From Escherichia phage U1G, in sequence record NC_070872.1: 64,000 nt of DNA; one strand, written 5' to 3'. Shown piece by piece: positions 32,483 to 33,234 of this stretch. The notes under the pieces were generated by a model, which was not told where the DNA came from, made no database searches, and saw only the letters and a list, made by a program, of their open reading frames with translations. The translations under genes and the position numbers were made by a program. Numbering within the stretch: the first letter of the stretch is position 1; each line of letters begins with the position of its first letter.

Positions 32483-33234
32483 ATGTCCGAAGAAATCTCC
32501 AATGATATGAACACTCAGCTAATCCTGATTGCAGGATTCTCAGCGAGTGGTAAATCAGCATCACTGCGTAACATCAGGAACCAGGAACGCTGGCTCTATT
32601 TGAATACTGAAGCAGGTAAACGTCTGCCTTTCCGTAACAAATTCAATACCTACAACATTGAAGACCCATATCAGATTTGGGAAGCATTTGATGTTGCATC
32701 CCCAGGTGGAGAAATGGCAGACGATGTTGATGGTATCATTATCGATTCTGCTACCTTCATGATGGATATGCTGGAATCCCAGTATGTACTGCCATCTGCT
32801 AACACCCAGAAAGCGTGGGGGATTTTGCACAGTTCTTTAAAATACTGCTGCAACAGAAAGTTGTTAAGTTTGGTAAGCCAGTAATCATTACTGCCCATGC
32901 CAAAGATGAACTCGACGAAGCTGCTGGTGTGATTAAAACATTCATCCCAGTGAAGGGCTCTCTGAAGAATAATGGCCTTGAGGCTTACTTCTCTACAGTG
33001 GTTTACGCAGAGCGTGTAGACATTAAAGAACTGGAGAAGTATGGCAACAAGATGCTTGAAATTACGGAAGAAGAACGTGACTTAGGCTATAAGCACGTAT
33101 TCCAGACTCGCCCAACTAAGAAGTCTGTTGGTAAACGTCTGCGTTCCCCAATGGGTATGTTCGATAAGTCTGAGACTTACATTGATAATGATGCCCAGAA
33201 ACTCTTAGACCATCTGGCTGAATACTACGCTTAA
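32483..33234 (+). CDS. AAA_24/RecA-like ATPase; two overlapping ORFs in this assembly
   Basis: Walker A GFSASGKS; +1 G in the G5 run 32817-32821 fuses the ORFs into ~250 aa (...KAWGDFAQFF...). Confidence 0.5.

Follow-up and report, generated by a model that had tools for sequence, protein, structure and literature searches.

[quoted passage not shown] Genes of the sak4 type have been found in N4-like virulent phages, and it is usual for them to adjoin an SSB gene (PMC5928155). In phages G7C and N4 this place is taken by gene gp44, which lies between the genes for primase (gp43) and SSB (gp45) and whose product is annotated as "AAA family ATPase" or "Sak4-like ssDNA annealing protein" in the Schitoviridae. 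The gp44 gene is thus already known; it is a conserved core replication/recombination gene of the N4-like phages and is called Sak4-like in many annotations.

The DNA analysed here (the window, below) is a stretch of 64,000 nucleotides from Escherichia phage U1G (NC_070872.1). Megablast places it in the genus Gamaleyavirus (G7C-like, N4-like coliphages of the Schitoviridae), and its best matches, which are 97% identical, are PGN829.1, CU10EC, PBM-2, AN24P2 and the UE-S5 series. The gp44 homologue in the window is flanked by the genes for primase gp43 (30276-32426), SSB gp45 (whose homologue starts 41 nt past gp44, at 33275), RuvC-like gp46 (34071-34625) and gp47. It has the same position as gp44 of G7C and N4 and, once repaired as described below, the same length of 250 amino acids; the known genes differ only by the base that is missing here at 32817-32821. 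Identity to the G7C protein is 91% in the upstream part and 96% in the downstream part. The features of the locus are as follows.

32483..33234, + strand: Sak4-like RecA-core ATPase gene by sequence (N4/G7C gp44 homologue); 752 nt, all relatives having 753 nt
32483..32884, + strand: upstream fragment ORF with an ATG start, 133 aa (translation; tblastn)
32815..33234, + strand: downstream fragment ORF with a mechanical GTG start, 139 aa (translation; tblastn)
32817..32821, + strand: G5 run with one base missing (alignment to relatives)
32534..32557, + strand: Walker A motif/P-loop GFSASGKS, aa 18-25 (translation)
32732..32746, + strand: probable Walker B motif GIIID, aa 84-88 (from the hhhhD pattern)
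33275..34071, + strand: SSB gene (N4 gp45 homologue), broken, with A5 at 33300-33304 (tblastn)

A previous sequence-only reading of this region had reported a Walker A-containing ORF at 32483-32884 and a second ORF, starting with GTG at 32815, that share 70 nt and are read in different frames. Coordinates and translation agree with this description; the overlap covers 32815-32884, and the shift from the first ORF to the second is -1. Positions 32817-32821 are exactly GGGGG, and insertion of one G there produces a 753-nt, 250-aa gp44 reading frame, as had been predicted when a fused protein of about 250 amino acids was proposed. Residues 1-113 of the 133-aa ORF are authentic Sak4 sequence, and its final 20 amino acids (ILHSSLKYCCNRKLLSLVSQ) are out-of-frame read-through; in tblastn, amino acids 1-126 of G7C gp44 are matched in frame 2 at this upstream fragment. 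The downstream 139-aa fragment is the C-terminal half of Sak4, including a conserved SPMGMFD motif that it has in common with HK620 Sak4. The gp44 locus is therefore one gene interrupted by a deficit of one nucleotide, and the pattern is far beyond chance.

The repaired 250-aa protein matches Pfam family AAA_24 (PF13479) with 41.8 bits (gathering threshold 27, E=1.3e-10, residues 14-218) and PHROG 124, "Sak4-like ssDNA annealing protein", with E=2.1e-49 over residues 5-250 in one stretch; it also matches PHROG 2872 (E=4.8e-17). The AAA_24 and PHROG 124 matches each cross the junction as a single stretch and so take in both halves, and the earlier identification of an AAA_24-like ATPase split at the G5 run stands, with a score above gathering. 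When the halves were scanned singly, the C-terminal half gave a sub-threshold AAA_24 match only and the N-terminal half no HMM match. An NCBIfam scan of the repaired protein returned only a sub-threshold BrxF P-loop match, and a search of PDB sequences gave nothing meaningful (best E=0.98).

Both Walker motifs are present, GxxxxGK[ST] as GFSASGKS and hhhhD as GIIID, and by these sequence criteria gp44 is a member of the Sak4 family of RecA-core-only ATPases. HK620 Sak4 (HkaL) is likewise a RecA-core-only P-loop protein, the two measuring 226-250 aa, and it matches the same two PHROGs, although its best is 2872 and that of U1G gp44 is 124. BLASTP finds the two proteins to be distant, with local matches only; these flank the junction, with E=1e-6 at the N-terminal side and E=6e-6 at the C-terminal side. 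Shared are the P-loop region (aa 15-53), in which GFSASGKS of gp44 aligns with GESGTGKS of HK620 Sak4, and the C-terminal SPMGMFD region (aa 212-250). The gene order, sak4 and then ssb, is also common to HK620 and the U1G locus, whereas the phages themselves differ, HK620 being temperate and P22-like and the U1G phage virulent and N4-like. By analogy to HK620 Sak4, the gp44 protein probably binds single-stranded DNA and anneals complementary strands with ATP, and the SSB encoded by the neighbouring gp45 would be its likely partner, stimulating the annealing. A likely role on the same analogy is SSB-assisted annealing in phage replication and recombination, together with primase, SSB and the RuvC-like resolvase.

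The gp44 coding sequence is intact, at 753 nt, in all 11 Gamaleyavirus relatives that were fetched. At the site of the G run they read TGG GGN GAY (Trp-Gly-Asp). Four relatives have A as the N and another four have T; the other three, ZQ2, AN24P2 and CU10EC (3/11 isolates), have G and hence six consecutive Gs, and two of these, CU10EC and AN24P2, rank with the closest relatives in the gp44 region. A degenerate pattern spanning the site found 12 environmental contigs (4 in IMG/VR and 8 metagenomic), and every one of these, which match the gp44 flanks, has the extra base. The 28-nt G5 form occurs in 0/12 of the environmental contigs, and the G5 form is absent also from the 11 isolates. The repaired protein was also used as a tblastn query on 50,697 phage records; of the 470 that matched, 469 cover 80% or more of its length, and all 60 rows sampled are single-piece matches. 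The repaired protein is 100% identical over its 250 amino acids to those of UE-S5b and AN24P2. For the 133-aa product, public assemblies gave no exact match. Compared with its six closest relatives (PGN829.1, Uz-1, UE-S5b, AN24P2, CU10EC and PBM-2), U1G gp44 has 11-15 nucleotide differences upstream and 8-16 downstream of the shift, and on both sides all of them are synonymous in the fused frame. Purifying selection has thus acted on the downstream half as part of a full-length protein, and the frameshift is either extremely recent or not real. What the site lacks is the wobble base of the glycine codon, so that the true sequence would most simply be G6; TGG GGG GAT, as in CU10EC and AN24P2, is the most likely form. 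We infer the sixth G in U1G rather than read it from the relatives, because most of these have GGA or GGT, although 3/11 isolates do have G6.

The gp44 site has company. A census of clean single-base indels in a blastn alignment of the window with PGN829.1 counted 17, of which 15 are deletions in the window; the other two are insertions, and no homopolymer shared with PGN829.1 is longer because of them. Besides the gp44 site there are about 13 single-base losses in the window, nearly all at homopolymers, and 10 of the 15 deletions lie in reference runs of at least 5. The following runs are shorter than in PGN829.1.

37: C7 to C6
12299: G5 to G4
14374: C5 to C4
15980: T7 to T6
33300: A6 to A5
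35567: C6 to C5
49902: C5 to C4
61004: C5 to C4
62495: G5 to G4
63519: C6 to C5

At 32821 (the gp44 site) and 35373 the missing base is a position that varies among the relatives, and the runs that remain in the window are G5 and A6, respectively; this is as expected if a synonymous change had lengthened the run, which was then undercalled. A further single-base homopolymer loss, at 61326, is seen relative to PGN829.1 or G7C, and its repair shortens the ORF. The losses at 7294 and 30215 do not fall in long runs, and these two could be true differences in non-coding DNA.

The rate of loss climbs with run length. With strict flank matching, a base was gone from 0/63 G/C runs of 4, 4/17 of 5 and 2/2 of at least 6 (only one G/C run of at least 6 is left in the window, and it is C7 in both PGN829.1 and G7C); for A/T runs the corresponding counts are 0/125, 1/40 and 2/10. 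Not one run was lengthened, and in the control comparison of PGN829.1 with G7C none of 70 runs had changed. One-directional, length-dependent loss from homopolymers is a hallmark of platform undercalling. The homopolymer errors known from flow-based and nanopore consensus sequences are likewise deletions only, dependent on run length and spread over the whole record, and they too create spurious frameshifts in conserved genes.

The conserved genes that are broken in the window are gp25, gp44, gp45 (SSB), gp47.2, gp51 (a virion protein), gp61 (endolysin) and the tail fibre gene, the last of them by two shifts. When G7C proteins were aligned with the window by tblastn, the frame switches within gp25 (VWA-like), gp44, gp47.2 and gp51, and N-termini were lost from gp45, gp61 and possibly gp62 (holin); gp36 also changes frame and was left uncounted because it lies in a divergent region. 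In all, 5/55 homologues in the window switch frame, to which the N-terminal truncations are to be added, versus 0/61 in the control, PGN829.1. One added base at each conserved-gene site brings a long ORF back; for example, repair at 12299 turns ORFs of 246 and 196 aa into one of 420 aa, repair at 49902 lengthens a 585-aa ORF to 657 aa, and repair at 62495 joins ORFs of 353 and 202 aa into one of 543 aa. The SSB gene next to gp44 is broken in the same way. Its run at 33300-33304 is A5, where 10 of 11 relatives have A6, and because of it the reading frame that begins with the ATG at 33275 ends early, in a TAA at 33323-33325; what is left is an internal ORF of 213 aa (33430-34071). With simultaneous frameshifts in the SSB, virion protein, endolysin and tail fibre genes, a phage in which all of these breaks were real would not be viable, as we infer from what is established about N4-like phages. 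In the record of Shigella phage pSb-1 (NC_023589, 1176-1501) the SSB gene is also annotated as two consecutive CDSs, gp92 and gp93, which points to a frameshift or a sequencing error that arose separately in the SSB gene of a second Gamaleyavirus record.

We consider it very probable that U1G has a single functional Sak4-like gp44 gene and that its apparent split is a consensus error, in which G6 was reported as G5. The sequencing or assembly pipeline would have undercalled long homopolymers systematically across this record and so have yielded the G5 at 32817-32821. Real shortening of a G6 tract by replication slippage would leave the same consensus; such tracts are mutational hot spots, and close relatives do carry G6 at the site. 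Such a deletion would inactivate sak4, and it might be tolerated if the phage can do without the gene in the laboratory host or if occasional -1 slippage on G_GGG partly rescues it; a -1 slip of the P-site tRNA-Gly from GGG (32819-21) to GGG (32818-20) yields the wild-type KAWGDFAQ. A real deletion must nevertheless be set against the other 13 or so single-base losses, eight of which break other conserved genes and could not all be real in a viable phage, against the lack of any non-synonymous change in either half of gp44 relative to the six closest relatives, and against the absence of the G5 form from all 12 environmental contigs and all 11 isolates, and we think it unlikely. That a real G5 is one state of a reversible G6/G5 slippage switch (phase variation of Sak4), with low-level rescue by -1 re-pairing on G_GGG, is very unlikely. 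If G5 were true, the phage would be recombinase-defective or dependent on slippage, a modest curiosity.

Programmed slippage is common in phage genes, for example those of the tail chaperones G/GT, and is known from dnaX, and the -1 sites of these genes likewise have two overlapping ORFs and a -1 shift at a homopolymeric run. At gp44 a shift of -1 is what is needed and the G run lets tRNA-Gly re-pair in the -1 frame, so programmed -1 ribosomal frameshifting or transcriptional slippage could give a regulated mix of the 133-aa product and the full-length ATPase. Unlike the G/GT and dnaX sites, however, gp44 has no canonical slippery heptamer and its arrangement is not conserved in relatives: the zero frame reads UGG GGG AUU, which has no X_XXY_YYZ and allows only single-tRNA re-pairing on G_GGG, and the two-frame layout is found in none of the 11 isolates, 12 environmental contigs or 60 sampled tblastn rows. 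The same kind of break in the adjoining SSB gene and in several other conserved genes also speaks against a programmed event, which we rejected on the missing heptamer and the lack of conservation and regard as highly improbable. The RNA downstream of the run (32822-32921) has a minimum free energy of -21.8 kcal/mol (z = -1.68); its fold was equalled or bettered by 10 of 200 shuffled sequences. Neither a known frameshift element nor another known RNA accounts for the gp44 locus, since a scan of the whole window at Rfam gathering thresholds gave no matches. It is scarcely credible, lastly, that the 133-aa and 139-aa polypeptides are translated apart and assemble into a functional ATPase. Both ORFs do have mechanical start codons, but the GTG of the second sits inside the conserved Trp-Gly codons with no obvious Shine-Dalgarno sequence upstream of it (as judged by eye), the last 20 amino acids of the first are out of frame and have no homologue, and neither half alone reaches the Pfam threshold. 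This two-product arrangement, too, was rejected, on the failure of the single halves in the HMM scans and on its absence from every relative.

The split in gp44 is almost certainly a sequencing artefact, then, and the gene is otherwise ordinary. The other frameshifts in the window (notably in the SSB gene at 33300-33304, gp25, gp51, gp61 and the tail fibre gene) share this origin in undercalling. The observation matters chiefly for quality control, in that about a dozen undercalled homopolymers in one record give rise to spurious pseudogenes of the Sak4 recombinase, SSB, virion protein, endolysin, tail fibre and others. Any frameshift or "split gene" in the window should be discounted until the sequence has been polished with accurate reads.

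The gene for the gp24-like ATPase (9882-11816) is interrupted by 882 nt (about 10197-11078) that PGN829.1 lacks. This insertion carries an HNH-like ORF (10313-10882), and a weak, sub-threshold Rfam match to group I introns lies within it (10705-11015, 23.7 bits with a gathering threshold of 50, E=0.0013); it is possibly a group I intron that encodes a homing endonuclease. The DNA polymerase gene (gp39 homologue, 24628-28047) is divided: its two parts occupy 24628-26442 and 27052-28047, and an ORF at 26439-27095 separates them. In PGN829.1, whose sequence aligns through all of this region, an HNH endonuclease is annotated between two "DNA polymerase I" CDSs, and in G7C gp39 is single. Several more HNH endonuclease-like ORFs stand free between core replication genes, at 29796-30233, 22280-22753 and 2571-3041; they are paralogues of G7C gp24.1, gp41.1 and gp2.1. 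Phages SP5M, Bas96, PhAPEC7 and PW8 have an extra HNH/restriction-endonuclease insertion of about 800 bp in the primase-sak4-ssb stretch, which the window does not have.

Compared with PGN829.1, the window has 29 extra nucleotides close to the left genome end (76-104), and these hold a perfect hairpin with a 6-bp stem and a 3-nt loop (GTGTGC TCT GCACAC), which we take to resemble the hairpin promoters of the N4 virion RNA polymerase. In gp50, the virion RNA polymerase gene itself, about 150 amino acids of the G7C protein (aa 966-1115) have no counterpart at 45182-45189. The match of the tail fibre (63307-63800) to G7C gp63.1 is confined to the N-terminal 170 or so amino acids, and the remainder is like the tail spike of PGN829.1, a pattern of sequence similarity that is consistent with the swap of a receptor-binding module.
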